A stretch of 64,000 nt of DNA. Origin: Promethearchaeota archaeon (GTDB taxonomy: Archaea; Asgardarchaeota; Lokiarchaeia; Sigyniarchaeales; SOKP01). The DNA is taken from contig JAEOUA010000010.1 in assembly GCA_016839555.1 (NCBI GenBank), positions 192,001 through 256,000 of the forward strand, in the 5' to 3' direction. A program made the position numbers and the translations under genes. The stretch's first letter is position 1. The number at the start of each line of letters is the position of its first letter. The notes beneath the pieces are model-generated. The model saw nothing but the letters and a program-made list of their open reading frames with translations. It had not been told where the DNA came from and made no database searches. Shown here piece by piece: positions 2,913 through 58,688 of the stretch.

Positions 2913-4295
2913 ATGAATATAGCTGAGGTTTCGGAAAAAATTATGATAAAAAAGTGTAATAAATGTAAATATTATTTCCTAATAATTCTAAGCATAAACA
3001 TCATTGTTAAACTTTTATCTTTCTCATCTACTCCGCTATTTTTTGATTCCTACACATATTTAATTGCTGCACAAGATATTATTAATTTGAATTATGAATC
3101 TTATCGGGCACCATTTTTCCCACTCTTAATTGTTCCTTTTTTATTTTTAACTAAAAATCCCTCTCTCTCCATTAAATTAGTTTCATTTTTAACCAGTATA
3201 TTTTTAATTATAATTTCATATATTATCTTTTCTAAAGCAGCTATGAAAATATTTGATAGAAATAATGAAAATTATAAGCAGAAAGGAAAATGCGTTGGAT
3301 TACTTGTTTGTTTTTTGATTTCATTTAATCTATATTTTCTTTCCCATGATTTAAAAGGACTAAGAGAAAGCTTATTATCCATTTTAGTATTATCTATATT
3401 TTATTTTACGATTATCAAAGAAAATATGAAGTTACAAAACAATATTTTCCTAGCTTTATCTATTTCTTGGCTTACGCTCACGCTCTTGACCGCAGGAATT
3501 TTTATTACTATTGGAATACTCTTGTTTTATTTAATATCAAAATTCAAAAGGTTTAAATGGAAATCGATTGAAGGGAGAAAAATACTAATCATTACTTTAG
3601 CATTTATTCTACCTTTTTTCTTATGGACTTTTTTTAATTTGTGTAAGTCTCTCCCCCCTTTTTATAGTTTAAATGTTCAAAGCCTCTGGTTTAAATTCGA
3701 ATATGGTCTTGAAATCACTTCAATCAGTGGATTAATTGATGCTTCTATAAATGCTCTAATTTTTGGAGTGCCCTCTTTATTTATTTATCTTATAGTTTTA
3801 ATTGGTTTTCTTTTTATAGCGATAATGATTTATGTGTTAATTAAAAATTTTAGAAAAAGACAGTTTCTTTTTCTATTTTTCTTTATAGGGGTTAATTTAG
3901 CTTATTTAAGTTTTTTCATTACAACACCGAGAGTAATTATGTATTTTTTTCCTTTTTTCTTATATTTAGGTGCATTGTATTTAACCAATATAATCTTTAA
4001 TATTAAGAATGGACAAATTAAAAACAAAAAAACTATGGTTTACTTGTTAATGATTTTTCTAATAACCTATATACTTCGAGGAATAAATGGTCTATCGATA
4101 ATCTATTTGATTCTTCAATTTTATAATAATATCCCGCTAAATATTAATTTCTATAAAATTTTATTTCAATTTTCTGAGTCTTTTTCTTCTCTAGGAGCAA
4201 TCATTAGTATTGTTTTTTCAGTAATAAATGAAGTCGCACTTCTCATCTATGTTATTAAGAGTAGCTATTTGAATATCTCTTGTGAATTTTCTTGA
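2913..4295 (+). CDS. Polytopic membrane protein, GT-C/PMT_2-like glycosyltransferase (paralog of 480-1793)
   Basis: FDSYTY, YRAPFFPLLIVPFL and LTLTLLTAG match the first paralog. Confidence 0.6.
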   Translation: MNIAEVSEKIMIKKCNKCKYYFLIILSINIIVKLLSFSSTPLFFDSYTYLIAAQDIINLNYESYRAPFFPLLIVPFLFLTKNPSLSIKLVSFLTSIFLIIISYIIFSKAAMKIFDRNNENYKQKGKCVGLLVCFLISFNLYFLSHDLKGLRESLLSILVLSIFYFTIIKENMKLQNNIFLALSISWLTLTLLTAGIFITIGILLFYLISKFKRFKWKSIEGRKILIITLAFILPFFLWTFFNLCKSLPPFYSLNVQSLWFKFEYGLEITSISGLIDASINALIFGVPSLFIYLIVLIGFLFIAIMIYVLIKNFRKRQFLFLFFFIGVNLAYLSFFITTPRVIMYFFPFFLYLGALYLTNIIFNIKNGQIKNKKTMVYLLMIFLITYILRGINGLSIIYLILQFYNNIPLNINFYKILFQFSESFSSLGAIISIVFSVINEVALLIYVIKSSYLNISCEFS

Positions 4296-4517
4296 ATTAT
4301 TATCTTTTTGTAGTTATATTTTGGAGAATTCGTTTATAATATAATTATTTGAAAGATTTATGCAATTCTCTTTATTGTTAGTATTTTAAATAGTAGCGTA
4401 TTGAAAAATTAGTCCTAAATAATAAAAACTTCAAGAGAATTTGTAAAGAAATTATTTTCAATAAAAAAAAATAAGAAGTTATGAGAAAAAATTAATTCCT
4501 ATTTCTATTTTTGATTT

Positions 4518-8839: not shown

Positions 8840-8906
8840 TTAAAATTGAAAAATATTTTATAATTCAAAATTAATCTATTCTGAGATATCTTTTTATTAT
8901 CATTTA

Positions 8907-9563
8907 TCACGCATTATTCCTATAGATAAAGGTTAAGGAGAATAAAAAAAACCAAGAGTATATCACAAAAACCAGAATCCATTCAAATAAGGTTGCAAAG
9001 ACAGGAAAGTAAACATAAGCCATTAATAATAAGACCAAAAACGTTATAAAATATACAAAACCTGAAATTAGGAGGTAGCTTGGAATGCTTATTTTATATA
9101 TTAAATAGATTAATCTAATAAAAAAAGCAAAAAAAGGATATCCTATAAAAAGAAAGAAGGCAAATACATAGTGTAAATAAAAAGGATTTCTATCCAGACT
9201 AAAGATTCCTACTCCAACAAGTCCAATATTTCCGTTAAGTAGAAATGAAAAAGCTAAAATAGCTAATGCTCTATAGAAAATTTTATGTTTTATGTTTGTA
9301 AAATTTATTTCAAGTTTAAAGAGAAAAGATAAAAAAAAATTAAATATGAATGGAAACATAAGAATACCAGAAAAGATACATCCAAGATCAAATAGCAGCG
9401 GTAAGGGAGAATATAATTTTTGACCCAGATCACTCACTGCATTTAAAAATATAGTGAAATTCTTATCTCCGAATAATTTAGTAATTAAAAAACTAGTAAG
9501 ATATGAAATAATTAAAATAATAACGCTTAGAATTGTAATAATCTTTACATATTTAAAATCCAT
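8907..9563 (-). CDS. DUF998-like membrane protein
   Basis: AVSDLG, F.LG.I.SG, GVGIFS..LH, FEW motifs; about 6 TM segments. Confidence 0.7.
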   Translation of the reverse strand: MDFKYVKIITILSVIILIISYLTSFLITKLFGDKNFTIFLNAVSDLGQKLYSPLPLLFDLGCIFSGILMFPFIFNFFLSFLFKLEINFTNIKHKIFYRALAILAFSFLLNGNIGLVGVGIFSLDRNPFYLHYVFAFFLFIGYPFFAFFIRLIYLIYKISIPSYLLISGFVYFITFLVLLLMAYVYFPVFATLFEWILVFVIYSWFFLFSLTFIYRNNA

Positions 9564-9830: not shown

Positions 9831-12599
9831 TTAGATAAAAATAGTAGATTTTTCTTCATCCGTAATATCCTCAATTTCTCGAGGCTCTCCTCTTTCTAGG
9901 AAGAAGGGATCTATTATTGCAGAGATTTGATCGAAATCATAATGTCGAGCGGTAATCGCCTTCAACCTACAAACTGCAGCGCATCGCCCGCATCCTTTAC
10001 AAATAGCAGGATTGATATACGCTTTTTTCATATCCATACTTATTTCTTCAAATTCTTTTTTCACATCTACAAGTGAAATTGCTTTAAATTGGCACGCTTC
10101 TTCACATCTTCCGCAACCATTACATTTCTCCGTATCAACAATCATATCCTTAAAATGGCATTCAATTGAAAGCAAGAATGAAAGGAATTTCAATTTATTT
10201 GTAGAAACTTGTTCTAAACTTAAGAATCTGCTTGCTCTCGCTGCTGCCCCCTTGGCTTGTGAAATGGAATCTTGAATATTTTTTGGCCATTGAGCGCATC
10301 CGCATAAGAATAAGCCATGGTTTTCAAAATCTAAAGGTCGTAATTTTGCGTGAGCTTCAACAAAAAATCCATCATCATTTATGGATACATTTAACATATC
10401 TGCTAGAGAATCTAAATCATTAGATGGCACCATGGGAGCTGATAATATGATAAGGTCTGTACCAAATTCAAGAAAATGCTCCGGATTATGATAATCTCTT
10501 AATTTAATCGTATATCTTTCAGGATCATCTCCAGTTTTAATAATTTCAGGGATATTTTGAGGATTATATCTTACAAAATTTGCGGTTTTATTGTTTTCAT
10601 TGAAAAAGTCTTCAAAATCTTTTTTCGCTGTATGCAGATCTCTATAAAATACTAACATTTGAAGATCGGGTTTGATCTTTTCTAATATATTAATATTTTT
10701 GATAGTGTTGCTACAACATATATTTGAACAATATGAAATTCCACCTTCATGTCGTGCTCCTACACACATTATGGTAGTAACGTGATGAATGTCTTTTAAC
10801 CACTCATAAGAACCTGTTTTGAGTTTTTGTTCTAATTCTAATTGAGTTATAATATTTTTATTTCCCTCACCGTAGGAATAGAGACCTTTTGGCTTATATT
10901 CTTGACCCCCTGTCGCAATGATAACGGTTCCAACATTTAATTCTAGCGGTTCTGGTTTGGAATTATTGACAAAAGCTACATAATTCCCAATTGAACCAGA
11001 TATTTGTTCAATCTTAGAATCTAATAGAACTTCAATATTAGTATTGTTTATGATTTTTTCTTTAATATTTTCTAAAAATTTGCTTGCTTTCTCTTCAATG
11101 GGATAAATTACATTCAGATTCTTTAAAATCCCTCCTAAACTTTCAGTTTTTTCTACGATATACGTTTTATATCCTTGGTTTGCAATATTTAGTGCTGCCG
11201 TCATTCCTGAAATACCTCCCCCAATTACCAATGCTGAAGGAGTAATTTCGATAATCTCTTCTTTTTTAGTAAGATCAATCTGTTTTCTTTTGATTTGAGT
11301 ATACTTAACTGAACTTAATAAATTAGCGATTTGTGAGGCTACTGCGCTCGCATCTGCAACCGTCTCAGAAATGTCCATCGGACTCTGACAATACCCACAT
11401 AAATAAATTCCATCCTTAGAAGAAAGTGATTTATCAAAGTAAGATCTTTCTTGATAGAAGCCGTATTTATCTAATTTAATTCCTAAAATTTTTGCTAATT
11501 TTTTTGTACCTGCAGAATATACAAGTGGAGCAGCTAATACAACCATATTCGCGAGAAATTCCTTTTTTTCACCAGTACCTAGATCTTTATAATTTATAAT
11601 TAAATCTTTTGATTTTGGAATTTCTTTAATATCATAGATTTTTGCTTGAAAATAGGTTACATTATGTTGCTTTTGAGCTTCTTTAGCATATTCATAGAAA
11701 TTCTTGCCAAATGCTCTAAATTTATGTCTGAATATATAAGGTTTTATATCTTCAGAATATAAATTTGTCCAAACAGCTTGATTTGCAGTATACATGCAGC
11801 AGACTCGGGAACAATAAGGGACACTTTCTTCCACATCAATTGATCCCGCACATTGGATGAAAGCAACTTTTTTCGGCTGTGTTTCATCACTTATTCTTAA
11901 TATTTGGGGACCAAATGGTCCTGTAGTACATAAAATTCTTTCATATTCTAAAGCATTGACAACATTTTTATATTGATATCCCCATCTTTCAGTCAATTCC
12001 TCCCCTAACATATCAAAACCAGTAGCAACCACTATTGCTCCCACTTCTATTTGAATCTCTTCTGGTTTTTGATCAAAATTAATAGCATCTCCTTTACATA
12101 CTTTTTTACATACTCCACATACTTGCCGGTTTATATATAAACATAAATTTGGATCTATTACATAAACAGGTGGTGTTGCTTGGGGAAAAGGAATATAAAT
12201 AGATTTTCTTTTACCTAGATTCATATCATATGGATTAGGTGCCTCTATTTTGGGACATTTAGCCGCACAATCCCCACATCCTTTGCATTTAGTCTCATCC
12301 ACATAACGAGGCTTCTTTTCTATAGTGACTTTAAAATTTCCTACTTCCCCTTTTACCTTTTTTACATTAGATAACGTAAATAATTTAATATTCGGATTGC
12401 GAAAAACTGCGATCATTTTTGGAGAAAGAGTGCATAATGCGCAATCATCATTTGGAAAAAGTTTCTCTAATTGAGCCACATGTCCTCCTATTGATGGTTT
12501 CCTTTCTACTAAATATACTTTAAATCCTAAATCTACTAAATCCAAGGAGGTTTGAATTCCTCCAATACCACCTCCAATTACTAATACAGAACCAATCAT
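9831..12599 (-). CDS. hdrA: HdrA-like flavoprotein with two FAD modules, lacking the HdrA N-terminal-type domain and MvhD
   Basis: Two GGGI(G/S)G Rossmann motifs, FIQCAGS, YCSRVCC, CxxCxxCxxxC ferredoxin motifs. Confidence 0.85.
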   Translation of the reverse strand: MIGSVLVIGGGIGGIQTSLDLVDLGFKVYLVERKPSIGGHVAQLEKLFPNDDCALCTLSPKMIAVFRNPNIKLFTLSNVKKVKGEVGNFKVTIEKKPRYVDETKCKGCGDCAAKCPKIEAPNPYDMNLGKRKSIYIPFPQATPPVYVIDPNLCLYINRQVCGVCKKVCKGDAINFDQKPEEIQIEVGAIVVATGFDMLGEELTERWGYQYKNVVNALEYERILCTTGPFGPQILRISDETQPKKVAFIQCAGSIDVEESVPYCSRVCCMYTANQAVWTNLYSEDIKPYIFRHKFRAFGKNFYEYAKEAQKQHNVTYFQAKIYDIKEIPKSKDLIINYKDLGTGEKKEFLANMVVLAAPLVYSAGTKKLAKILGIKLDKYGFYQERSYFDKSLSSKDGIYLCGYCQSPMDISETVADASAVASQIANLLSSVKYTQIKRKQIDLTKKEEIIEITPSALVIGGGISGMTAALNIANQGYKTYIVEKTESLGGILKNLNVIYPIEEKASKFLENIKEKIINNTNIEVLLDSKIEQISGSIGNYVAFVNNSKPEPLELNVGTVIIATGGQEYKPKGLYSYGEGNKNIITQLELEQKLKTGSYEWLKDIHHVTTIMCVGARHEGGISYCSNICCSNTIKNINILEKIKPDLQMLVFYRDLHTAKKDFEDFFNENNKTANFVRYNPQNIPEIIKTGDDPERYTIKLRDYHNPEHFLEFGTDLIILSAPMVPSNDLDSLADMLNVSINDDGFFVEAHAKLRPLDFENHGLFLCGCAQWPKNIQDSISQAKGAAARASRFLSLEQVSTNKLKFLSFLLSIECHFKDMIVDTEKCNGCGRCEEACQFKAISLVDVKKEFEEISMDMKKAYINPAICKGCGRCAAVCRLKAITARHYDFDQISAIIDPFFLERGEPREIEDITDEEKSTIFI

Positions 12600-12990: not shown

Positions 12991-15900
12991 TTACTTGGTT
13001 AAAGGACCTAATTCCTTAACTTGATTAGTAAATTCTGTAATTAATTCAGCAAAACGCTTTCCTTCAGAAGCACTTACCCATTCAAGTCTAAGGCGCTTTT
13101 TGTCAATACCTAATTGCTCAATAATAATATTGTGAAGTTTTTCAAATCTTTCTTGTGCATATTCATTGCCAGAAATATAATGACAATCGCCAATATGGCA
13201 TCCACTTATAAGTACTCCATCCGCGCCGTCCTTGAATGCCTTCAAAATGAATGAGGGATCAACCCTTCCCGAACACATTACTCTTACAATCCTCATGTTT
13301 GGAGGATATTGAAACCTTGAAACGCCTGCTAAGTCAGCTCCCGCGTAAGAACACCAATTACAGCAAAAAACAAGAATTTCAGGATTGAAATATGAGTCAA
13401 TCATGGCGGAAATCTGCCCGAATTCAAACTGTCTGATCGTTATAGCACCATTTGGACAAGTCGCTGCGCATGTACCACAGCCCTTGCATAATGCGGGGTT
13501 TATGAACGATTTTTTTGTAGAAATATTGACTTCTTCAAATTCTTTAATAGAGGGGACCAGCTCTATTGCATTATATGGGCAGACGCTTTCGCATTTTCCA
13601 CAGCCAATACAATTCGTGGGATTAACTTCAGCAACTACCCCAGAGGTTTGAATTTCTTTTGCATTTAAAAAACGACTGGCTCTTCCCGCCGCACCATTTG
13701 CTTGCGAGATGGAATCTCGAATATTTTTTGGCCATTGAGCGCATCCGCATAAGAAGATTCCATCAGTTGCAAAATCTAATGGTCTTAATTTTACATGAGC
13801 TTCCAAGAAAAATCCATGCTCGTCTAAAGGTACCTTTAGCATTTTAGCTAATTCTATATTATCATATGGAACCATTGGAGTGGAAAGAACGATTAAATCA
13901 GTTTCAAATTTAAGTTTATCATGTAAATTTGTATCATATACTTCAATTTCATATTTTTCTGGTTTCTTTTTCTTTTTTTTAACTTTTGGTAAATTATCCA
14001 AATCATATCTAAGAAACATAGCATCTTTTCTGCGATTACGGTAGTATTCTTCATATTCTTTTTTGGCCATTTGAATATCTCTATAAAGTAAAACGATCTC
14101 AAGCTCTGGTTTTAGCTCTTTAAGATAATTTATGTTTTTTATGGCATTACCACAACACACATTAGAACAATAAGTAATTCCTTCTTTTTGCCGAGCATTT
14201 ACGCATAATATTGTTGTTATTCTATCGATATCATCCAGCCAAGAATAATCTTTTGATCTTAATTTCTGTTCAAGTTCTAATTGAGTTATCACATTATTAT
14301 TTCCCTGTTTATATTCAAATATCCCATGTGGCTTATGTTCTTTGGTCCCTGTCGCAACTATTATTGTGCCAATTTTTAACTCATGGATTTTATCTTTTGA
14401 ATCAATGATAGAGACATCATAATTTCCAATGTAGCCTTTTACTTCTTTTAATTGTGATCCGAGAAAAATTTCAATATTTTCATTATTTTCAATTTTTAAT
14501 TTTGTTTCATTTAAAAGATCTATCGCATCATATTCAATAGGATATAAAGAGTTTAAAAATTTCAAATTTCCTCCAAGATTCTTTTCTTTTTCAACCAGAA
14601 ATGCCTTAAATCCTTGGTTTGCAATGCTTAAAGCAGCTGTCATTCCTGAGATCCCCCCTCCAATTATTAATGCGCTAGGAGTTATTTGGATAAGTTCTTC
14701 TTTAAGGGGTTTTAATAATCTAGCTTTTGCGACTGCCATTCGTATAAGATCTTTAGCTTTTTGAGTTGCTGCCTCACGCTCATTCATATGAACCCAGCTA
14801 CACTGATCGCGAATATTAACCATCTCGAAGAGATATTTATTTAAGCCTGCTTCCTGACAAGTTTCCTGAAATAAGGCTTCATGGGTTCTTGGGGTACAAG
14901 ATGCAACAATAAAACGATTTAAATCATATTCTTGAATTACTTCCTTAATTCTCGCTTGAGAATCAGAACTGCAAGAATATAAATTATCTTCACAAAATAC
15001 CACATTAGGCAAAGTTTTTATATATTCCGCTACATTGGGGACTTCTACATATTTTCCAATATTAATCCCACAATGACAAATTAAAACTCCGATTCTTGGC
15101 TCATCTGTAATTTTTACTTCTTTTTCTTCTACTTCAATTTCTTTTTCTTTTAATTGGGTATAAGCAACGGAATTTAAAAAGGAAGCTACTTGAGATGCTA
15201 CCCCACTGGAATCAGCAACGGTTTCTGGAATATCCATTGGTCCCTCGCAAAATCCGCATAGAAAAATTCCATCTCGAGAGGATAATGATTTATTAAAATA
15301 AGACCTTTCATGAAAAAATCCATATTTATCTAATTCAATGCCTAATATTTTTCCTAATTCTCTAGTACCATGAGATGGTACTAAAGGGGTTGCTAAAACT
15401 ATTAAATTTGCCCGAAATTGTTGAAATTCTCCTGTTTTAAGATCTTCATAGTTTATTAAGATATCATTAGTTTTAGAATCTTCCTCAATAAAACTTATCT
15501 TCGTTTGAAAATATTCAACCCCATATTCTTCTTGGGCTCGTTGCGTAAATTCATAGAAATTTTTTCCATAAGCTCTAATATCATGTCGAAAGACATAACA
15601 TTTAGACTTTTCTGAATGCTCCTTAGTAATGATTGCTTCTTTTGCAGTATACATACAACAAACGCTGGAACAATAAGGTATACCTTCATGTAAATCTCGA
15701 GATCCCGCACATTGGATGAATGCTATCTTTTCTGGTTCCTTATGATCACTTGGTCTTAATACATGCCCTTCGAAGGGTCCGGAAGCGCAAAGAATTCTTT
15801 CATATTCTAATGCAGACACTACATTTTCATATTGATAACCCCATCGGTGTGATAATTCTTCTCCAAGCATATCAAATCCAGTAGCTACTACTATTGCACC

Positions 15901-16458
15901 TACTTTTATATCAAATATCTGAGGCTTCTGGTCAAAATCAATAGCTTCTGCTTTACAAACTTTACTACATACTCCACATACATCTTTAGTTAGCTTTAAA
16001 CATAATTCAGGATCTATTACATAAACTGGCGGTACTGCTTGGGGAAAAGGAATATAGATCGATTTTCGCTTTCCAAGATTCATATCAAAAAGATTAGGAA
16101 CCTCTATCTTCGGGCATTTTGCTGCGCAATCGCCACATCCCTTACATTTTGTTTCATCCACATAGCGCGGCTTTTTTAAGATTGATACTGTAAAATCTCC
16201 TGCTTTACCTTTTACTTCTTTAACTTCATGATAAGTTAAAAGCTCAATATTCTGATTACGAAAAACTTCCACCATTTTTGGCGCCAGAATACAGAGTGAG
16301 CAGTCATTTGTGGGGAATGTTTTGTCAAGTTGAGCCATTCGTCCCCCAATAGAAGGAGATTTCTCTACTAAATATACTTTAAAACCTAATTCAGTCAAAT
16401 CTAAAGAAGTTTGAATCCCAGCTATGCCACCACCTATAACCAGTACCGAGCCTTCCAT
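12991..16458 (-). CDS. hdrA: Large HdrA-like protein (two FAD modules) fused to a C-terminal MvhD domain; all-Cys paralog
   Basis: DKTFPTNDCSLC, ICHCG, VASCTP, RDQCSW; MvhD motifs FCCNWCSYAGADLAG, MCSGRVD, GCHIGDCHY. Confidence 0.92.
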   Translation of the reverse strand: MEGSVLVIGGGIAGIQTSLDLTELGFKVYLVEKSPSIGGRMAQLDKTFPTNDCSLCILAPKMVEVFRNQNIELLTYHEVKEVKGKAGDFTVSILKKPRYVDETKCKGCGDCAAKCPKIEVPNLFDMNLGKRKSIYIPFPQAVPPVYVIDPELCLKLTKDVCGVCSKVCKAEAIDFDQKPQIFDIKVGAIVVATGFDMLGEELSHRWGYQYENVVSALEYERILCASGPFEGHVLRPSDHKEPEKIAFIQCAGSRDLHEGIPYCSSVCCMYTAKEAIITKEHSEKSKCYVFRHDIRAYGKNFYEFTQRAQEEYGVEYFQTKISFIEEDSKTNDILINYEDLKTGEFQQFRANLIVLATPLVPSHGTRELGKILGIELDKYGFFHERSYFNKSLSSRDGIFLCGFCEGPMDIPETVADSSGVASQVASFLNSVAYTQLKEKEIEVEEKEVKITDEPRIGVLICHCGINIGKYVEVPNVAEYIKTLPNVVFCEDNLYSCSSDSQARIKEVIQEYDLNRFIVASCTPRTHEALFQETCQEAGLNKYLFEMVNIRDQCSWVHMNEREAATQKAKDLIRMAVAKARLLKPLKEELIQITPSALIIGGGISGMTAALSIANQGFKAFLVEKEKNLGGNLKFLNSLYPIEYDAIDLLNETKLKIENNENIEIFLGSQLKEVKGYIGNYDVSIIDSKDKIHELKIGTIIVATGTKEHKPHGIFEYKQGNNNVITQLELEQKLRSKDYSWLDDIDRITTILCVNARQKEGITYCSNVCCGNAIKNINYLKELKPELEIVLLYRDIQMAKKEYEEYYRNRRKDAMFLRYDLDNLPKVKKKKKKPEKYEIEVYDTNLHDKLKFETDLIVLSTPMVPYDNIELAKMLKVPLDEHGFFLEAHVKLRPLDFATDGIFLCGCAQWPKNIRDSISQANGAAGRASRFLNAKEIQTSGVVAEVNPTNCIGCGKCESVCPYNAIELVPSIKEFEEVNISTKKSFINPALCKGCGTCAATCPNGAITIRQFEFGQISAMIDSYFNPEILVFCCNWCSYAGADLAGVSRFQYPPNMRIVRVMCSGRVDPSFILKAFKDGADGVLISGCHIGDCHYISGNEYAQERFEKLHNIIIEQLGIDKKRLRLEWVSASEGKRFAELITEFTNQVKELGPLTK

Positions 16459-16461
16459 TAT

Positions 16462-17691
16462 TTATTTTACCTCGATATGTTTTATGATAAATTCAATAAA
16501 ATCCATAATCTTCACATCAGCTAAATCAGGAAAATCATTCTGAACACAAGTTAGATGAATATTACACTTTGGACATGATGTTAACATGAGGCTGGCAACT
16601 TCTTTTGCTTCTAACATTCTTTTATATCGTAATGCTTTAGATTTTTCATTACAATTCATCCAACAACTCACACCACAACATAACGAATTTTTTTGATTGT
16701 GCACCATCTCTTTGAAATCATATCCTAAAGTTTTAAAAGCATTAAAAATTTCTCTTGATTTTTCTATAATTTTATTTTCTTTTGGCAAAAATCTGCTTAA
16801 GCGACAAGGATCATGAAAAGTGAATTGAATTTTTTCTTCTTTTTCATTAGGATGGGCAAATTCAATCGTCTCGTTTTTCCAATTATCATATACATATTCA
16901 ATTATATGTTTTACTTCATATTTTTCTTCAAAATCATCAAAAATTTGAGTATAATCCACTTTGAAGGTCCTATAGCATTCTGCACATGCAGTAATAATGG
17001 TTGAAACTTGGGCCTCCTCGAATTTTTTTAAATTCTTTTTTCCTAACTCTATAAATTCATCGATCTCACCTTGCCCCCAATAAATATCATGTCCACAACA
17101 CATCTCATCCTCTAACACAACAATGGGATTATCTTCGACTTTGCATAATAATTGTAAAGTACTAATCGCTATTTCATCTAATCCTTGAAATTCAAATTTA
17201 AAAAAAGGTAAGCACCCCACAAAATACAATATTTCTCCTTTTTGAGATGTTTTACACTCTTTTGGGATCCAACTTAGATCTCTCTTTGGGCGAATAGAAT
17301 ATTGGCTCATAATTTCAGGAATAGAAGTATAAATGCCTTTATGAGCAATCAATTCTTCGGGATTTTGTTCCTCTTCTTTTCTCATTTTATATCGTGCAAT
17401 TCGAACCACATCAGCAAAATTAATTTCCATAGGACAATTTTGCAGGCAGCTGTTGCACGTCAAGCAATCCCATAAGACTTTACTTTTAAGTACTTTTTCT
17501 TCAAAACCTTCTAAAATAAGTTGGATTATTCTACTTGGCGGATATTTCTCAACTTTACTTAATTGACACACACTACTACAGCGTCCGCATTGATAACATT
17601 TTTTTAATAAATCTCTTAACTCAGAACTATATACTTTCTTTTTGAAAACAATGTCTTGCTCTTTGTCTGTAATTTTTTTTGACTCGGTTAT
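16462..17691 (-). CDS. hdrD: HdrD-like protein (HdrC-type 2x[4Fe-4S] plus two CCG domains); start probably ATA at 17691
   Basis: Frame extends 40 codons upstream of the ORF-track GTG and contains CYQCGRCSSVC; CLTCNSCLQNCP, two CCG, FHDPCRL. Confidence 0.8.
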   Translation of the reverse strand: MTESKKITDKEQDIVFKKKVYSSELRDLLKKCYQCGRCSSVCQLSKVEKYPPSRIIQLILEGFEEKVLKSKVLWDCLTCNSCLQNCPMEINFADVVRIARYKMRKEEEQNPEELIAHKGIYTSIPEIMSQYSIRPKRDLSWIPKECKTSQKGEILYFVGCLPFFKFEFQGLDEIAISTLQLLCKVEDNPIVVLEDEMCCGHDIYWGQGEIDEFIELGKKNLKKFEEAQVSTIITACAECYRTFKVDYTQIFDDFEEKYEVKHIIEYVYDNWKNETIEFAHPNEKEEKIQFTFHDPCRLSRFLPKENKIIEKSREIFNAFKTLGYDFKEMVHNQKNSLCCGVSCWMNCNEKSKALRYKRMLEAKEVASLMLTSCPKCNIHLTCVQNDFPDLADVKIMDFIEFIIKHIEVK

Positions 17692-18853: not shown

Positions 18854-20362
18854 TTATTCATTTTTATTTAATTCAATAGATTTTGCTTTATTTCTTTTAC
18901 TTCCACCAATTCTTTCTACAAGGAATTGCCCAGGTTTAACTTCTGTTAGTTTTTTAAATTCTATTAACCCCGCTTTTACTGCCCCCTGAAATATTTCTTC
19001 TCCCGCCTTAGATCGTATAATAACTGCAGATGATCCACCAGGTGCTCCAATTGATCCCACAGAAATGTCTGCATATTCTGAGGTTAAATCATCACAATAG
19101 TGACAAGTATCGCGAGCATAAGACTGAACATCTTTAAGTGGAACATTTTTTTCCTCTCCGTTTTTTAGATTAATAATAAATTTCCCACTATCAATATTCA
19201 TCTTGGTTAGATTGTTAATGTCTTCATTGAACTGTTCTCTTACTAGTTTAATGATATTGTCGTAAGAAAAACTTTCCATGCAGAATAATCCTATGCGATA
19301 TGTTATATTTTTAAAGAATGGAAGGCCACTGGGAAATAATTCCCCTTTTACAAGAGCGTTCATCATACAAGGAACTCCAACAAGTGCTATCCGCTCATAA
19401 TTTTTTGCTTTTTCGAGGATATTTAATGAGGGAGCGTTCGCATATTTTGTACCCGCCGTTTTATATAAGTCTTTTACATCATCTACAATTACCGGTTCTG
19501 GTTTCCATAATTTATCTGAATGTTGTACGGCAACAATCGCATCGACAAGATTATTTTTAAGCAAATATTCGAGCAAAGAAGTAACAATCCCACCGTCCTG
19601 CCTAACCTCCTTGATTTCATCCTTAGTAGTAGTGCCAGAATAAGTTTTTAGATATGCACCTATTTTTTCCGAAAATGTCAGTGAATTATCAAGCTTTTTT
19701 ATGGTTTCATATGCTCTATTCATTGAGAAAGAGCGAGGGCAAACGGTAAAACATAGGCCGCATTTCATACATTTGTCTTCATCTAATTCAAGATGATCCG
19801 CGGTAACATTGATCGCATTCACCGGACAGATTGCCGAACAAAACCCGCAATTAACACATACCCCCACCTCATCAATTATTGACACAGGTTCAAAATAATG
19901 TTCTTTGAGATCCATCTCAGTATCTTTGGCTTTATATCGATAAAAATACTCCTTTTCCTCTACGACTTTTTCTTCCCCTTTAATTGTTTTCTTTACCTTC
20001 TTGGTTTTTACTTCAACTTGCTCTTCTACATATCCTTGTTCTTTTAAATAGATTACATCTCTTATTACATTTTCTGGTGGAATATCTTTAAATTCCTTGA
20101 CAATTTCCTCTAAAAATAATGCTTCATCGATATTTTTCATTTTTTTCAGGATATATCTGCGCTCTGTTTCAGCATCAATCATGGAATCTAAAATTTCGTA
20201 ATATTCCTGTTCTGTATATTTACTACATTCTAAAATCTCATCCTTGGCCTCAAAAAAAGCTCGAATTTGAAAATTCATTGATGCTTCAAAGGTAGCGTCT
20301 AATAGATCTTTCGGGGATATTTTTTCGAATACCTTTTTATCCACTTGTTGTAGCATTACCAT
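18854..20362 (-). CDS. FrhB/FpoF family protein with ferredoxin and an extra ~160-aa N-terminal domain
   Basis: CVNCGFCSAICP, CMKCGLC, QDGGIVT, VGVPC, GLFCME, CHYCDD, ADISVG. Confidence 0.88.
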   Translation of the reverse strand: MVMLQQVDKKVFEKISPKDLLDATFEASMNFQIRAFFEAKDEILECSKYTEQEYYEILDSMIDAETERRYILKKMKNIDEALFLEEIVKEFKDIPPENVIRDVIYLKEQGYVEEQVEVKTKKVKKTIKGEEKVVEEKEYFYRYKAKDTEMDLKEHYFEPVSIIDEVGVCVNCGFCSAICPVNAINVTADHLELDEDKCMKCGLCFTVCPRSFSMNRAYETIKKLDNSLTFSEKIGAYLKTYSGTTTKDEIKEVRQDGGIVTSLLEYLLKNNLVDAIVAVQHSDKLWKPEPVIVDDVKDLYKTAGTKYANAPSLNILEKAKNYERIALVGVPCMMNALVKGELFPSGLPFFKNITYRIGLFCMESFSYDNIIKLVREQFNEDINNLTKMNIDSGKFIINLKNGEEKNVPLKDVQSYARDTCHYCDDLTSEYADISVGSIGAPGGSSAVIIRSKAGEEIFQGAVKAGLIEFKKLTEVKPGQFLVERIGGSKRNKAKSIELNKNE

Positions 20363-20429
20363 TTTTACTTCTTTTTTCCTTTTTTAACTATTTCATTCAA
20401 CACATTTTTAAAATTATAATTATTTTTTA

Positions 20430-20503
20430 CATCCTCCCACCACGCTAAGGTTAGTCCTTTTGTACCTACAATTTTTATACAAAACTCATTCTTTTAGAGG
20501 ATG
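20430..20503 (-). promoter_or_regulatory. Eukaryote-like SECIS element
   Basis: CAUCCUCU/GGGAGGAUG lower helix; AUGA (20489-20486) opposite GA (20456-20455); UUUUGUAU/GUACAAAA upper helix; AAAAA opening the apical loop; starts 1 nt after the vhuD stop. Confidence 0.85.
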
Positions 20504-20504
20504 G

Positions 20505-20933
20505 TTAGTTTTTTAGTCTTGCTTGATTTTCAATTTTTATAGGATTGGGTCCTAATCTCTGAATCTTCTCATGGGCGTCCTTAACACTCTTTACCAATTT
20601 ATCACCTTCAGCGGACGAGCAATAATACATATTGACTCTTTTTCCGAAACCTCTTTTTTCCAAAATTCTGTTCGCGAAATCGACATGCTCTTGTGCTACA
20701 TAATTGCCCTTGCCAAAAGCACATTCTTTTAGTCTTCATCCCACCACCATTACTCCATCAGCACCCGATTTTATCGCATATAAGATATGTTTCACATCAA
20801 CTCTGCCTGTACATCTCACTTTAATTATTCTCACAGAGGGAGTATATTTAAGCCTAGAAGTACCGGCTAAATCAGCTGCGCCGTAACCTCACTTTGTGCA
20901 AGCGAACAATATTATTTGCATATTATCATTCAA
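20505..20933 (-). CDS. vhuD: VhuD/MvhD selenoprotein, 142 aa, two Sec; absent from the ORF track
   Basis: FACTK-TGA-GYGAADLAG, VRCTGRVD, VVG-TGA-RLKEC; TGAs at 20889-20891 and 20736-20738; GGTGA SD before the TTG start (alternative ATG at 20921). Confidence 0.93.
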
Positions 20934-20938
20934 TTTTT

Positions 20939-22897
20939 TTAATCACCTGCTAGTAATCCTTTAATTTCAGCATATAATTGATAATCTCGGGAATAGCGTA
21001 TATCTATTGCTTGGGTTGGGCAACAAGTCGCACAAATCCCACATCCATCGCAATTAATTTCGTCCACCACTGCTACTTCATTATCAGAAACTGTGATCGC
21101 ACCTTTCGGACATTCTTTCTCACATCGTTTACATGAGATGCAGAGATCTTCTGTCACTTCCGCAACAATCAATTCGAGATCAATTTCGCCCGCAGATGTT
21201 AGTTCAGCAACTTTACTTGCCGCTGCCCTTGCTTGAGAAACAGAATAACCAATATTTTTAGGTCCTTGTGCAAAGCCTGCGATAAAAATTCCTTTTGTCC
21301 TTGTTTCTTGTGGCATAAGACCAAAGTGAGCTTCCGTTAAAAATCCATATTTATCCACATCTAAATTTAAGACTTTAGCAATTTGTTCTGTACCTTGAGA
21401 TGGCAATACCGCAGTTGACAATACCACTAAATCCGCATCAATATTTATAATTTCATCCGTAAGGGAAGAATATACCCTAATCTTAACGTTTTTAGTTTCA
21501 GGATCTTCTCTTATTTCTCCTACTTTCCCTCGTATTAATCGTATACCTTTTTCTCTTGATCTTTGATAGTATTCTTCAAATCCCTTTTCATTTGTTCTCA
21601 TATCAATATAACATATCGATATATTCGCGTCAGGAAATTCTTCTTTTAATAATCGTGCATTTTTTAATGCTAACATGCAACATATGCCACTACAATAGGT
21701 TCTTTCAGCAGTTCTGCTCCCGACACATTGAATGAAAACAATTTCTTTTGGTTCTTTCTCATCCGATACTCTATGCATATACCCTTCAAGCGGTCCATTC
21801 GGAGCAAGCATTCTCTCAAGTTGAGCTTGATTAATCACGTTTTCAAATGTTCCATAACCATATTCATCTTCTGGTTCATAAATATCCCAACCAGTCGCAA
21901 TGATGATTGTTCCCACTTTAAAATGTACCTCTTCAGGTTTCTGAGAGAAATCTATTGCATCTAATTCGCATTCATTTACGCATGAAAAGCATTCTACACA
22001 GCAATCTCGTTTAATATCATATAAAAACGGTACTGCTTGACCAAATGCGATATCTATTGCTTTTCTAACCCCTAAATGCTCATCAAAGAAATTACTACAA
22101 TAGATAGGACATACCTCGGCGCATGCCCCACAGCCATTGCAATCATCTGTAATGAATCGCGGTTTTTTCTCAACTGTAACTTCATAATTTCCGACATAAC
22201 CTTCGACCTCCTTTACATAACTATAGCTTAGAATTTCAATGTTTTTATGTCGGTTAACTTCCAGCATTTTAGGGCCACAGATTCAGATGGAGCAATCGTC
22301 TGTTGGAAACGTTCTATCTAGCTGAGCCATGCGACCTCCTATGGTTGTTTTTTCTTCGACTAAATACACTTTTATTCCTTGGTTGGCAAGATCAAGAGCG
22401 GCATTCATGCCTGCAATACCCCCGCCTACTATGAGACAAGCCTTCTCAACAGGCACCGTTCTTATGGGGACGGTTTCAAGTCTTCTTAATCGTTCCATGC
22501 CTCCCTTTACAAGAATTTTTGCTTTTTCAGTTGCATCCTCCTTATCCTCTGTACACCAGCTACACTGCTCCCGAACATTTACCATCTGAAAAAAATAGGG
22601 ACTTAAGCCCGCTTTTTCAATAGTTTCTCTATAAATTGGTTCATGGGTAAGAGGTGTTCAAGCTGATGCGATTATACGATTTAATTTCTTTTCTTTGATA
22701 TCTTTAAGGATTTCTCCTTGGCCCGCTTCTGTACAGAGAAAGGGAGATATTTTTGATACCACCACATTGTCCAAAGTTTTGGCAAATTCTGTTAATTTTT
22801 GGCAATCTACTTTACTTTTTATATTTATACCTCACTGACAAGCGTAATAACCTATACGTTGCTCTGTATCCAATCCGTTGTTTTGATTATTATTCAT
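20939..22897 (-). CDS. hdrA: Heterodisulfide reductase subunit A selenoprotein, 652 aa, three Sec (U22, U80, U205)
   Basis: One frame from ATG 22897 (AGGTGA upstream): ACQ-U-GINI, ASA-U-TPLTHE, DDCSI-U-ICGPKM; TGAs at 22832-22834, 22658-22660, 22283-22285; joins two ORF-track fragments. Confidence 0.93.
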
Positions 22898-23309
22898 ACT
22901 TCTTTCTATATCACCTAATCAGAATTATTTTAATTCTTAATAATTATTTTTATTAAAGTTTTTTTATTAGTTTAACTTTACATTTTTCAATAGAACTTAA
23001 CACAAATAAAGAAATTTAATCTAAAAAAGTTTAGATTTATATTAATATTCACTTCATTTATATTTGAAAAGAAAAAATTTTAAAAAAAAATTATTTCTCT
23101 CTAAAAATATTCCAAATTGACGTTAAATTTTGAATCTTGTTTTCATATAATTGTCGAATTTGTTCTAAAAATATGAATAACTCTTATCAGCCAAGGTTTA
23201 TTTAAATTTAAAAGATGGAAATATAAAATAATAAAAAAAGTTAAATTTGAAATTGTAATTGTAAAAGATAATTAGAAAGTTAAATAACAAAAAAAAAAAA
23301 AAGAAAATT

Positions 23310-25049
23310 ATGACACTTCTATTAAATCCAAAGCAACATATACGGTATTATCCCGATGCGAGATCAAAAGAGATTATGCTCAAAACTATAGAATTTTTCG
23401 AAAATAAAGGGAAAAGAAAACTTAAGGAAGATGATCACAATCATGTGTGGTATGGTGATTTTCTCGAATTCCAAAAAGAAAATATGCTTTTTGCTCATCT
23501 GTTAACTCCTTCTCAATATGGAGAGAATGAAGATTATCGATGGGATACTTGGAGAATTTGCGAATTTAATGAAATACTTGCATTTTATGGTTTAAATTAT
23601 TGGTATACGTGGCAAGTGACAATATTAGGGCTAGGTCCTATTTGGATGAGTAAAAATGAGAAAGCGAAGCAAAAAGCAGCAAAATTATTGCGAGAGGGGG
23701 CAATATTTGCCTTTGGATTATCCGAACAAGCTCATGGGGCAGATATTTACGCTACTGAAATGGCTTTAACTCCTCAAGAAGATGGAACATATAGAGCAAA
23801 TGGAGAAAAATATTATATTGGAAACGGAAATGAAGCAGAAATGGTTTCAAATTTCGGCAAATTTGCTGATAAGGAAGGAAATATCCCTCCATATGACATG
23901 AAAAATAAGGACCAATATATTTTCTTTGTAGCAAATTATAGAAATAAAAACTATGAACTAATAAAAAATATTTGCGAAAGTCAAAATTATGTAGCAAATT
24001 TTGCACTTCATGACTATCCAATTACTGAAGAAGATATTCTTTCCAAGGGAGAAGAAGCTTGGAATGCATCTCTTAATACCGTAAATGTGGGAAAATATAA
24101 TTTAGGATGGGCTTCAATAGGTATTTGTACCCATACATTTTATGAAGCGATTCATCATGCCGCTCATCGACGGCTCTATAATATGTATGTGACCGATTTT
24201 CAACATGTAAAACAGAATTTTGTCGATGCTTATACCCGTTTAATAGCGATGAAATTATTTGGATTGAGAACGGCAGATTATATGAGAATAGCTTCTAATG
24301 AGGATCGCCGATATTTACTCTATGCACCGGTTATGAAAATGAAAACGACCACTCAAGGAGAGGAAGTTATTAATTTGATGTGGGATGTGATCGCTGCGAA
24401 AGGTTTTGAAAAAGATATGTATTTTGAAGGGGCAGCAAGGGATATTCGTGCGTTACCTAAACTTGAAGGTACAGTTCACGTAAATATTGCGTTAATTTTG
24501 AAATTTATGTTAAATTTCTTTATGAATCATAAGAAATATGAAGAGATCCCTCGACAAGATCAAATTAAAGATGATACTTATTTGTTCAATCAGGGACCCA
24601 CTCGTGGGTTGGGAGCAATTCGTCTTCATGATTGGAAGCCAGCGTTTGAGCAATATAACCTACCCAATGTTAAAATATTTTTAGAACAAATTAAGATGTT
24701 TAATCTTATGGGAGTTAAAGCTACCCCAAGTGCTAAACAACAAAAAGATTTGGATTTTATGCTTTCAGGAATCGGAGAGATTTTTTCTCTTATCGTATAT
24801 GCTCATTTAATCATTGAAAATGCGAAAATCTACGAAATTGATAATGATACATTAGACCAAATATTTGATTTTTTAGTAAGAGATTTTTCTAAATATGCAT
24901 TGAATCTGTATCATAAAACTAGTACTACTCCTGAGCAGATGGAATGGTGTTTGAAGATGATTAAGAAACCCAATGTCGATCCAGAAAGATTTAATAAAGT
25001 ATGGGAAATTGTTCACTCTCTCAAGGATGCATATGAAATGAATCCATAA
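23310..25049 (+). CDS. Acyl-CoA dehydrogenase family protein
   Basis: AFGLSEQAHGAD, NGEKYYIGN, HRRLY, LEGT. Confidence 0.9.
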   Translation: MTLLLNPKQHIRYYPDARSKEIMLKTIEFFENKGKRKLKEDDHNHVWYGDFLEFQKENMLFAHLLTPSQYGENEDYRWDTWRICEFNEILAFYGLNYWYTWQVTILGLGPIWMSKNEKAKQKAAKLLREGAIFAFGLSEQAHGADIYATEMALTPQEDGTYRANGEKYYIGNGNEAEMVSNFGKFADKEGNIPPYDMKNKDQYIFFVANYRNKNYELIKNICESQNYVANFALHDYPITEEDILSKGEEAWNASLNTVNVGKYNLGWASIGICTHTFYEAIHHAAHRRLYNMYVTDFQHVKQNFVDAYTRLIAMKLFGLRTADYMRIASNEDRRYLLYAPVMKMKTTTQGEEVINLMWDVIAAKGFEKDMYFEGAARDIRALPKLEGTVHVNIALILKFMLNFFMNHKKYEEIPRQDQIKDDTYLFNQGPTRGLGAIRLHDWKPAFEQYNLPNVKIFLEQIKMFNLMGVKATPSAKQQKDLDFMLSGIGEIFSLIVYAHLIIENAKIYEIDNDTLDQIFDFLVRDFSKYALNLYHKTSTTPEQMEWCLKMIKKPNVDPERFNKVWEIVHSLKDAYEMNP

Positions 25050-31479: not shown

Positions 31480-32928
31480 ATGAGGGCTATAAAAAAAAGA
31501 AATAAGATTCTCTCCATATTAATTGTTAGTATTTTTCTAATCATTTTTTCAGCAATTAATATGGGAATAGATTTTAATACGCCTCTTAAAAACTCTGAAA
31601 CAACCATTCTGTACCAAAAAAATCCAATACTCGAACCTTCTTCAGTTACATATAATTGGGGCTCTATAGAATTAATCTCTACGGGTAGCGTTAATGATTC
31701 CAGAGATCCAGAGATTATATCTGACAGTTCAGGAAATTTGTATGTTGTCTGGGATGATGGTAATGCTTCGGATCCAAATGATAGGGATGTATTTTTTAAA
31801 TTGTGGAATAAAACAACTAGTAATTGGGAGAATAATGAGACAGTTTCAGAAGATTACAATTTAATATCTGCTAATCCTGATATAGCTTTAATCGATAAAA
31901 CTGCCTTTGTAGTATGGCAAAATATGGGAGATGATATGAATTCTTATGATATATTACGGAGTATCCGAAATCCTGGCGGAAGTTGGGGCAGTTATAAGAA
32001 TCTAACTATTAATAGTACGGAAAAAATCAAAATAAATCCATCCCTTTATATTGATAAAGCTGGTAGACCACATACAGTATGGACCGAAGTAAATAAAACT
32101 AATTCTAGCTATTACAATATCTATTATAATAAAAACTTTTTAACAACGGAAAGAATAACAAATTATTCTGCGGAAGAAGCAACCAATCCGCAAGTTATTT
32201 GCGATTCTGAAAATAAACCCCATATAGTATGGCAAGAGAAATATGTTGTTGGAATTGGTACTAGTATAAAAATAAGGCATATATGGTATGATGAGGGATG
32301 GAAAGACATAGAAGATATAAGTCAAATAGGAGAATATATAACTTGTAAAGATCCCAGTATCGCTGTAGATAGTTCAGGCAACATACACGTTGTTTGGCAA
32401 ACACACGATAGTACATTCTCTTCCTCCTCCATAAATTATAAAGTTTGGGATAAAATAACTGAAGAATGGGGATCAACTAAGACAATCGCAAATATTGAAT
32501 CAACAGAATATGTTTTCCCTGAGATTGCGATTGATAGTGCGGATAATATACATATAGTATATGGAGATGATCCAAATGCTACATTGGAAAGAGATTTATT
32601 TTACATAAATCTTTTGAGTGATTCAATCATTTGGAGTCCAGCTCAATGTATAGCAAATGGTACTAAGAGTGTATGGGAGTTCTCTATTACAGCAGATATT
32701 TACGACAAAATACATATTGTATGGGAAGATTATTCAAATTTTAACAATTCGGGAGATGATTCAGACATATTTTATAGGCGATTAACTTTAATTCAAAGGA
32801 AACAAAATATCCTATTCCTTCTCCCGAGCAGTCAAGCGCCACAGATTCCAGGTTATAATATTCTTATCTTAATTGGTGCGATTTCTGTAATATCGATGAT
32901 TATAATGAAAAAATATTTGAAAATATGA
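31480..32928 (+). CDS. Secreted beta-propeller-like repeat protein with a Loki-CTERM-type sorting signal
   Basis: Signal peptide; repeats P.I..DS.G..H.VW; many N-x-S/T sites; C-terminal IPGY, TM helix and basic tail. Confidence 0.8.
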   Translation: MRAIKKRNKILSILIVSIFLIIFSAINMGIDFNTPLKNSETTILYQKNPILEPSSVTYNWGSIELISTGSVNDSRDPEIISDSSGNLYVVWDDGNASDPNDRDVFFKLWNKTTSNWENNETVSEDYNLISANPDIALIDKTAFVVWQNMGDDMNSYDILRSIRNPGGSWGSYKNLTINSTEKIKINPSLYIDKAGRPHTVWTEVNKTNSSYYNIYYNKNFLTTERITNYSAEEATNPQVICDSENKPHIVWQEKYVVGIGTSIKIRHIWYDEGWKDIEDISQIGEYITCKDPSIAVDSSGNIHVVWQTHDSTFSSSSINYKVWDKITEEWGSTKTIANIESTEYVFPEIAIDSADNIHIVYGDDPNATLERDLFYINLLSDSIIWSPAQCIANGTKSVWEFSITADIYDKIHIVWEDYSNFNNSGDDSDIFYRRLTLIQRKQNILFLLPSSQAPQIPGYNILILIGAISVISMIIMKKYLKI

Positions 32929-33066
32929 ATGTATATCTAATACATCATATTTTCTGTTTTCTTTTTTTTAATGAGACAAGCAAAAATGATAGAGAGATTA
33001 AAAAACCTTTAAAATAAGAATCATATTATTCTCTAAATAGATTTTTCTTAGTTGATATAAGTATAA

Positions 33067-39774: not shown

Positions 39775-39853
39775 TTTTTACATTTAATAGTTATAAAAAG
39801 AATTATTTAAAGAACGAGATAATTCTAATCAAAAATCCAAAAAACTTTTTTAA

Positions 39854-48174: not shown

Positions 48175-48265
48175 ATTTAAAATATGAACCATACAATCTG
48201 TATAAAAACTAATTTTTTACTAAATTTCTTATTTATTTTTTCAATTTTAAAAAGAAAGAATAAAT

Positions 48266-58545: not shown

Positions 58546-58688
58546 CGCTAGAATTTTTAATATACTTTATTTTCTACGATTAAAAAATTATACATAATTT
58601 ATACTGCTTAAAAAAGTTAAAAAAAGTTCCATTGTTATTTAAATTGATATCTTTAAATTTATTTTAAATTAAAGTTTATTTTTAGAAA

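Follow-up and report, generated by a model that had tools for sequence, protein, structure and literature searches.

A Lokiarchaeial hdrA-vhuD locus with five in-frame UGA codons and one downstream SECIS-type hairpin

Two adjacent genes in a 64,000-nucleotide stretch of Promethearchaeota DNA (the window, from whose first letter all positions are counted unless a contig is named) very probably make up a selenoprotein unit, and two-gene units of this kind have been described before in Lokiarchaeota. A first-pass annotation of the sequence had singled out the upstream gene, hdrA, for its three in-frame UGA codons, which it took to encode selenocysteine (Sec). The Sec unit is larger than this one gene, and also comprises a vhuD gene with two UGA codons of its own and a hairpin of the lokiSECIS type that the two genes share (Table 1). 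With the same high probability that we attach to the unit as a whole, all five UGA codons are predicted to encode Sec.

The hdrA gene lies on the minus strand, and a plus-strand reading of the same interval is full of stops. Minus-strand translation bears out the earlier description of a single 652-codon frame at 20939-22897, with TGA at codons 22, 80 and 205 only, no frameshift and no internal TAA or TAG. The frame is indeed split by standard gene calling, as had been claimed: under translation table 11 it yields products of 442 aa (20939..22267) and 100 aa (22283..22585), and the N-terminal remainder falls below the 60-aa cut-off of the ORF listing. A chance origin is excluded because a frame of 652 codons free of TAA and TAG has, by our own estimate, a probability of ~1e-18 at the G+C content of the window (29.8%), and because the translation aligns with a solved HdrA (PDB 9sfi_A, E 3.3e-203) over residues 12-649. 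The same residues align with 5odc_A (E 2.7e-194) and 8rvu_a (E 1.3e-190).

The domains of the predicted protein are those of the family. An FAD-binding Rossmann motif (GGGIAG) occupies residues 158-163, Pfam matches to Pyr_redox_2, FAD_oxidored and NAD_binding_8 mark a thioredoxin-reductase-like domain at 154-204, and Fer4 family matches fall at 235-264 and 578-633. Cys sets for six [4Fe-4S] clusters are all present and are conserved among orthologues: one in the N-terminal domain, where Sec would take two of the four Cys positions, one in the C391/C402/C406/C407 motif, two in an inserted ferredoxin domain and two in the C-terminal ferredoxin domain. Judged by its sequence, then, hdrA is a real gene of the HdrA family with three predicted Sec sites.

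Table 1. Features of the hdrA-vhuD locus and the evidence for each (window positions)
Feature	Position	Strand	Remarks
hdrA coding sequence	20939..22897	-	652 codons plus TAA stop; translation, Pfam and solved-structure matches
hdrA codon 22, UGA, predicted Sec (YACQ-U-GIN; C20-Q-U22, N-terminal cluster domain)	22832..22834	-	TGA in 67/67 orthologues covering the site; invariant Cys in solved HdrA
hdrA codon 80, UGA, predicted Sec (IASA-U-TPL, N-terminal cluster domain)	22658..22660	-	TGA in 68/68 orthologues; invariant Cys in solved HdrA
hdrA codon 205, UGA, predicted Sec, canonical site (DCSI-U-ICG; C202-S-I-U205)	22283..22285	-	TGA in 68/68 orthologues; X (Sec) in 9sfi_A
vhuD/mvhD-like coding sequence	20505..20933 (TTG) or 20505..20921 (ATG)	-	142 or 138 codons; TAA stop at 20507-20505
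vhuD first UGA, predicted Sec (FACTK-U-GYG)	20889..20891	-	X (Sec) in 9sfi_K; Cys16 of M. marburgensis MvhD (9sw2_D); kept in orthologues
vhuD second UGA, predicted Sec (VVG-U-RLKEC)	20736..20738	-	second X (Sec) of 9sfi_K; kept in orthologues
lokiSECIS-type hairpin	20430..20503	-	motif, fold and covariation; begins directly past the vhuD stop
SECIS lower helix	20503-20496 / 20437-20430	-	
SECIS AUGA	20489-20486	-	15 nt after the vhuD stop
SECIS upper stem	20485-20477 / 20465-20457	-	nine positions: 8 pairs and one G.G (first position)
SECIS 11-nt loop AAAAAUUGUAG	20476-20466	-	
SECIS GA	20456-20455	-	
SECIS small nested hairpin	20451-20439	-	

All three UGA codons of hdrA stand in invariant Cys columns. 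The proposal that one of them corresponds to the CxxU site of methanococcal HdrA is upheld by the alignment, in which U205 is matched to Sec197 of Methanococcus maripaludis (9sfi_A) and to Cys205 of M. marburgensis. The conservation of the codons themselves was assessed in 68 orthologues (75-85% identity) from MAGs named Promethearchaeota, as NCBI now calls Lokiarchaeota. The closest loci also belong to such MAGs, and the window DNA is present in marine-sediment metagenomes. At codon 55, where the present gene has Cys, 40 of the orthologues have TGA and 28 have Cys, and the present hdrA is therefore a three-Sec variant of a mostly four-Sec group. Single MAGs carry an extra TGA at 303, 306 or 619, all of them ligand positions of the classical CxxCxxC ferredoxin motif.

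HdrA homologues occur in 40 of 41 related genomes, and those listed contain from 0 to 5 TGA codons and no other stop. In a single-contig 4.4-Mb genome of the same order, for example, an HdrA has two TGA codons. Random stops at non-Cys sites were not found in the orthologues; their TGA codons fall on Cys columns. In two other samples of the same study, the contigs that reach this locus span all five TGA codons of hdrA and vhuD and are identical across the TGA-bearing stretches. The contigs are fragmentary, and the run that is the likeliest source yields almost no coverage; none of the runs listed for this stretch is of RNA type. In a relative from a marsh metagenome, the first vhuD TGA is kept while nearby third codon positions differ.

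Could hdrA be a pseudogene with three nonsense mutations, from which fragments or nothing would be made? Fragments are what standard gene calling returns, and six Cys-only paralogues of the HdrA family could cover the function. A decaying gene is nevertheless hard to reconcile with a frame that has acquired neither a frameshift nor a TAA or TAG, whose three TGA codons all fall in invariant Cys columns, and whose protein sequence is conserved across these codons (E 3e-203). Moreover, the same codons are TGA in 67-68 of the 68 orthologues, which come from independent MAGs, and a conserved SECIS element and Sec machinery accompany the gene. We regard loss of function as extremely improbable, and continue with hdrA as a functional gene with predicted Sec sites.

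The vhuD gene begins 5 nt past the hdrA stop if translation starts at TTG 20933, or 17 nt past it if translation starts at ATG 20921; the TTG is the start that agrees with the N-termini of orthologues. The product matches Pfam FlpD (3.9e-43) and VhuD of the M. maripaludis complex (9sfi_K, E 1.1e-36). In orthologous loci the hdrA stop is TAA in every case checked, and vhuD begins 2-28 nt later.

The hairpin past the vhuD stop has the AUGA, 9-bp stem, 11-nt A-rich loop and GA that the published rules prescribe for lokiSECIS, save for one G.G in the stem. A strict form of this motif finds nine matches in the 3.74-Mb genome, compared with none in the reversed genome and none in each of three shuffled genomes. 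Relaxed rules reveal no second SECIS motif on either strand between 20000 and 23400. The element recurs in all 66 orthologous loci with enough sequence, 435-487 nt past the hdrA stop, and these loci provide 39 distinct stems from which RNAalifold recovers the upper stem with compensatory changes in seven of its eight pairs. By contrast, the fold of the single sequence is no more stable than those of its shuffles (z -0.04); the element is supported by motif rules and covariation and gains nothing from folding energy.

An Rfam scan of 19800-23400, with E values up to 10, yields no match to a SECIS family; Rfam holds no lokiSECIS model. Matches to RybB, MIR476 and snoR1 near the locus lie on the opposite strand and were set aside as chance. 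Column-wise pairing from a MAFFT alignment is unusable for the lower helix and the small nested hairpin, whose 3′ part is out of register, and these parts were examined by constrained folds of each sequence with a shuffle control. The accessible portions of the lokiSECIS literature (PMC4989117, PMC11227280) make no mention of a lower helix that has a nested mini-hairpin on the 3′ side of the core.

The genome from which the window derives (12 contigs, 92% complete) is a Lokiarchaeial MAG with Sec machinery, in keeping with the earlier remark that Lokiarchaeota use Sec. The five components named in the first-pass annotation, namely tRNA-Sec, SelD, PSTK, SepSecS and SelB, were all located, three of them with scores below curated cut-offs. 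A tRNA-Sec with anticodon UCA scores 45.3 bits with Infernal, just under the Rfam cut-off of 47, and lies ~190 nt from a SepSecS gene (494 bits). A SelB-like gene 5 kb from this pair scores 237 bits against a cut-off of 242, and a PSTK-like gene scores 160 bits against one of 290, the cut-offs in both cases belonging to models built on other lineages. SelD (185 bits) has its own in-frame TGA and is thus predicted to contain Sec. ARAGORN called no tRNA in the window and none at the tRNA-Sec locus.

Elsewhere in the window TGA is an ordinary stop. Eight other ORFs that can be extended by read-through (480-1838, 1859-2818, 2913-4313, 8904-9563, 31480-32940, 39803-40183, 46897-48180 and 57403-58551) were rejected as selenoproteins, the TGA lying within the last 16 codons of each. 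This position of TGA excludes a reassignment of UGA throughout the genome to a standard amino acid, such as Trp or Gly in codes 4 and 25. The same idea had drawn some encouragement from public gene calls in related contigs, where another protein family was translated with TGA as Trp, and it is opposed further by the finding that internal TGA codons occur only in a few redox proteins, on Cys columns and with a SECIS in each case, and by the presence of a tRNA-Sec. We give it hardly any credence, and read the UGA codons of hdrA and vhuD as probable Sec codons.

A subtler alternative is that the same machinery inserts Cys at these UGA codons to some extent or under certain conditions, selenium scarcity being one example, such that the protein is mixed or mostly of the Cys form. 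In mammals the Sec pathway is known to insert Cys at UGA. Every UGA site here aligns with Cys, and the switching between TGA and Cys at codon 55 among orthologues implies that Cys is functionally tolerated at that position. However, codons 22, 80 and 205 are strictly kept as TGA among the 68 orthologues, a pattern that favors selection on selenium itself. The genome also keeps a Sec-containing SelD, and separate Cys-only paralogues exist for a selenium-free situation. Substantial Cys insertion thus appears improbable, if less so than either pseudogene decay or codon reassignment, and Sec remains the favored reading at all five sites.

The arrangement of the locus suggests how these codons would be decoded. 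One mRNA probably carries both hdrA and vhuD, and its five UGA codons would be read by Sec-tRNA(UCA), whose synthesis would run through PSTK and SepSecS, with SelD as the source of selenophosphate, and whose delivery would fall to an archaeal SelB/EFSec. The single eukaryote-like kink-turn SECIS past the vhuD stop would direct decoding at all of them, whereas the TAA stop of hdrA should not be recodable by a SECIS. The UGA codons of hdrA lie 2345, 2171 and 1796 nt upstream of the SECIS AUGA, and those of vhuD lie 402 and 249 nt upstream. We know of no experimental demonstration, in any archaeon, of one SECIS acting over 2.3 kb and two cistrons.

By analogy with solved methanogen complexes, HdrA would be the FAD-containing electron-bifurcating subunit and VhuD its [2Fe-2S] partner for electron input. 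The C-x-x-U pair C202/U205 would sit between mobile clusters and the flavin, where it may serve as a redox-active selenylsulfide or as a ligand-binding relay. The first Sec of VhuD, which aligns with Cys16 of MvhD, would approach this pair; cryo-EM work places MvhD Cys16 near the Cys202/Cys205 pair. U22 and U80 belong to the four invariant Cys positions of the domain predicted to hold a mobile, low-potential "shuttle" [4Fe-4S] cluster, and the HdrA N-terminal domain is where the low-potential shuttle cluster HA3 has been located. Selenium would in this manner be gathered along the mobile low-potential path around the flavin, where its presumed effect would be to accelerate or tune electron transfer.

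What role the selenium might play at the canonical position is still debated. One crystal-structure reading has the canonical residue complete the N-terminal cluster of the partner as its fourth ligand, whereas two 2026 cryo-EM studies describe a separate Cys/Sec pair, with density of a selenylsulfide-like kind or from an unknown ligand, between the mobile clusters and the flavin. The counterpart of this pair in the present protein is C202/U205. The published views therefore conflict, with a ligand of the partner's cluster on one side and a separate Cys/Sec relay pair on the other.

The first-pass annotation had also held that the two additional N-terminal Sec residues replace Fe-S ligands, a claim that stands in part. 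Among five solved HdrA sequences, the N-terminal cluster domain has invariant Cys only at positions 20, 22, 55 and 80, and U22 and U80 are two of these four. In 5ODC (M. thermolithotrophicus), the residues equivalent to codons 20, 22, 55, 80, 202 and 205 are approximately Cys11, 13, 46, 71, 194 and 197. If three or four of the invariant positions are [4Fe-4S] ligands, then at least one of U22 and U80 should be a selenolate ligand. This is a counting argument, not one read from structure coordinates. The same count for orthologues with four Sec residues indicates that at least two of their three N-terminal Sec would be ligands, given that three or four invariant positions ligate. Against the claim, Mariotti et al. 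(2016; PMC4989117), writing before structures were available, stated that the N-terminal Sec positions are not cluster ligands. A ligand list for the N-terminal cluster was not found in open-access papers, in which only Cys197 of the partner is named as one ligand.

A bolder reading is that the shuttle [4Fe-4S] cluster is held mostly or wholly by selenolates, supplied by codons 22 and 80, by codon 55 in most orthologues and possibly by U205 of the partner subunit. We advance this tentatively, and lean slightly against it. If true, the low-potential branch of flavin-based electron bifurcation would contain a naturally occurring Fe-S cluster with selenium ligands, and the 2016 denial of a ligand role for these Sec positions, which predates the structures, would be overturned. 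Structures published from 2017 to 2026 locate the residues on which the Sec sites fall around the bifurcating flavin and its mobile clusters, and the insistence of this lineage on selenium at such positions points to which residues matter.

The genome encodes ten members of the HdrA family, four with predicted Sec and six with Cys only, and the earlier observation that Cys-only paralogues exist beside the Sec-encoding hdrA is thus correct. Two of the four Sec genes have TGA at positions 22 and 205, and two at 22, 80 and 205. Each of the four is followed by a Sec-encoding vhuD and by its own lokiSECIS, giving three such pairs besides the present locus. One Cys-only paralogue had been compared with hdrA directly and said to have Cys at each of the three sites. 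The aligned residues are Cys, but this gene (12991-16458, minus strand, 1155 aa) joins two HdrA modules to an MvhD domain, and the sites are split between the modules: module 1 has the counterpart of U205 (Cys at residue 56), and module 2 has the Cys counterparts of U22 and U80. A complementary arrangement of this type has been described for fused HdrA (PMC9012536).

Downstream of the pair, on the same strand, are two FrhB/FdhB-like genes, a CCG-domain gene, the HdrA-HdrA-MvhD fusion and another HdrA-like gene. The CCG-domain gene (HdrB/D-like, 16462-17571) is the only one in the cluster, and hdrB and hdrC have been reported to lie elsewhere in Loki (Mariotti et al., 2016; PMC4989117). Pfam annotation of the neighborhood reveals no hydrogenase gene near hdrA. 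Because FrhB-like and CCG-domain genes are neighbors and a hydrogenase is not, a bifurcating complex that operates independently of hydrogenase is weakly suggested, and appears plausible.

Several of the other strict lokiSECIS matches in the genome lie outside the hdrA-vhuD pairs. One begins 1 nt after an ORF on contig 7 (6067-6540) that encodes ~155 aa and belongs to no Pfam family. The protein has an invariant G-C-U-U, with two adjacent TGA codons, followed by a conserved 35-residue tail. Its structure model, which is confident (pLDDT 83.8), has beta-grasp domains as its only structural matches, at low TM. A ThiS/MoaD-like protein is encoded beside it. Homologues are encoded in 25 of 41 relatives, with two TGA codons in every one, and nearly all of 235 database relatives end at ...GC and are called hypothetical; the few that are full length read GCWW because the caller used TGA as Trp. 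The seven Asgard and eleven archaeal selenoprotein families named in the accessible portions of the surveyed literature do not include the G-C-U-U family. On sequence and model we consider it a candidate for a conserved beta-grasp-like family with two adjacent Sec residues and its own lokiSECIS. A further match follows a PrxL gene with U-x-x-U, another follows a candidate short ORF with a CYDCU motif that is possibly VhuU-like and has no Pfam match, and two more follow ORFs to which no family could be assigned.

The hdrA-vhuD-SECIS locus is already known in kind and fits every defining published feature that was tested, since its architecture is described by Mariotti et al. (2016; PMC4989117) and Huang et al. 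(2024; PMC11227280). The high novelty that the first-pass annotation implied for a triple-Sec HdrA cannot be sustained: multi-Sec HdrA from Lokiarchaeota, with up to four Sec residues at five possible positions that always include the canonical one, was published in 2016 (PMC4989117). In that account, a vhuD with two Sec always accompanies the multi-Sec HdrA gene in tandem, UGA never serves as the hdrA stop, and up to six UGA codons over ~2 kb would depend on one shared eukaryote-like SECIS located downstream of vhuD (PMC4989117). The later survey covered more than 400 Asgard genomes and reported 1439 selenoprotein genes in 227 of them (PMC11227280). The present locus has little novelty of its own, and is best regarded as a clean, well-conserved example of a published Lokiarchaeial feature. 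Its practical lesson is that gene callers fragment hdrA and miss vhuD entirely, and Asgard redox gene clusters will consequently be misread wherever UGA-Sec codons are not handled. Five UGA codons in two cistrons, with one eukaryote-like SECIS as far as 2.3 kb away, also represent the setup that has made Lokiarchaeota a proposed link between archaeal and eukaryotic Sec decoding.

Comparison with the HdrA/VhuD complex of M. maripaludis (9sfi) reveals the same domain architecture, with ~55% identity as judged by eye in the alignment and not computed, and Sec at the C-x-x-U of HdrA and at both VhuD positions. The methanogen HdrA differs in having one Sec, the counterparts of U22 and U80 being Cys, and the SECIS of Methanococcus is of the archaeal GAA_A type. 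The methanogen complex works with a [NiFeSe] hydrogenase and a formylmethanofuran dehydrogenase in methanogenesis, neither of which is encoded beside the present hdrA. Eukaryotic selenoprotein P offers a different parallel, in which several distant UGA codons are served by SECIS elements of the 3′ UTR; as here, these are kink-turn structures that combine unpaired adenines with an AUGA...GA core. It departs from the present system in that here one SECIS would serve two cistrons and has a shorter upper stem; no SBP2 is known in Asgard archaea (PMC4989117, PMC11227280).

The closest likeness is to the HdrA/VhuD pairs of Lokiarchaeota, with which the locus shares its phylum, a short gap between hdrA and vhuD on the same strand, a canonical UGA near residue 200, a vhuD with two UGA codons and an hdrA stop other than UGA. 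The single SECIS after vhuD, with its AUGA, nine-position stem, 11-nt loop of the form A's...AG and GA, likewise conforms to these pairs. Relative to its Lokiarchaeial orthologues, the present hdrA has three predicted Sec residues where most have four, the extra one being at codon 55, and otherwise nothing essential differs.

Two adjacent in-frame TGA codons form part of an invariant G-C-U-U motif in a conserved family of proteins approximately 155 amino acids in length, which is represented in this genome by a gene on contig 7, outside the window. The motif is followed by a conserved tail of 35 residues, and a lokiSECIS lies 1 nucleotide 3′ of the gene's stop codon, with its AUGA at contig position 6542. 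Homologues occur in 25 of the 41 related genomes searched, both TGA codons are present in all, and a Cys-Cys form was not seen. Nearly all of 235 database relatives end prematurely at ...GC, annotated as hypothetical. Neither PMC11227280 nor PMC13188914 includes it in its list of selenoprotein families from archaea. Pfam yields no match to the protein, and beta-grasp domains, at low TM, are the sole structural matches to its AF2 model (pLDDT 83.8). A polyferredoxin gene and a ThiS/MoaD-family gene are located upstream.

The start codons of this gene and of vhuD both look non-standard. Specifically, the conserved N-terminus of the G-C-U-U protein in this genome contains no ATG, GTG or TTG, and the frame opens NIKKLKF... 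(around position 1390 of L128, the lokiSECIS-bearing stretch of contig 7). For vhuD, on the minus strand of the window, TTG at 20933 is preferred over ATG at 20921 because the N-termini of its orthologues read MENxxxII...

Features discussed in the text (L124 through L128, lokiSECIS-bearing stretches of this genome; L034, L038, L039 and L043 through L110, orthologous hdrA loci from related genomes, with codons numbered as in the window hdrA)
Feature	Location	Strand	Remark
G-C-U-U protein gene	G000 contig 7, 6067-6540 (L128:1390-1863)	+	ORF with two in-frame TGA and lokiSECIS
Peroxiredoxin-like selenoprotein	contig 10, 423591-424118 (L124)	-	AhpC/TSA, 2.2e-25
Candidate short ORF, motif CYDCU	contig 6, 314176-314331 (L125)	-	own lokiSECIS
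Strict lokiSECIS match, no assigned selenoprotein	contig 2, around 30224 (L126)	-	in-frame-TGA ORF precedes
Strict lokiSECIS match, no assigned selenoprotein	contig 11, around 822 (L127)	-	strict motif
hdrA-vhuD SECIS	window 20430-20503	-	compared with orthologous loci L043-L110
hdrA orthologues with added TGA	codon 303: L038, L039; codon 619: L034; codon 306: among L043-L110
Fused tandem HdrA	window 12991-16458	-	1155 aa
Fused tandem HdrA	window 9831-12599	-	fusion of HdrA modules

Among the other lokiSECIS matches, the contig 10 protein has a U-x-x-U redox box and its own element, and it matches a PrxL family already reported for Lokiarchaeota. The contig 6 candidate may be VhuU-like; it has no Pfam match, and its frame was not recovered on a second translation. 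The ORF ahead of the contig 2 element carries its in-frame TGA in ...FFYSSET-U-TMAFCG... and gives only a weak HesB/IscA-type match (E 0.16), and no convincing ORF was found for the contig 11 element.

The hdrA-vhuD SECIS has a lower helix in addition to the published upper stem and core, together with a small hairpin of 3-6 bp nested on the 3′ side directly after the core GA, whose loop in relatives is often GCGA or GCAA. This layout is found at 43 of 66 orthologous loci, versus 12% of flank-shuffled controls; no mention of it was found in the text of two papers on SECIS elements.

A few hdrA orthologues carry an added TGA at codon 303 (two genomes of one genus), 306 or 619, all positions of the classical CxxCxxCxxxC ferredoxin motif. 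The added codons suggest that, in the HdrA family, even a Cys whose role as a [4Fe-4S] ligand is not disputed can give way to Sec.

Two proteins encoded in the window are tandem HdrA fusions. In the 1155-residue protein, the first module retains the C-x-x-C pair and lacks the N-terminal cluster domain, the second retains that domain and lacks the pair, and the C-terminus carries a fused MvhD domain. The same complementary pattern of modules has been described for the HdrA fusions of ANME and Moorella (PMC9012536).
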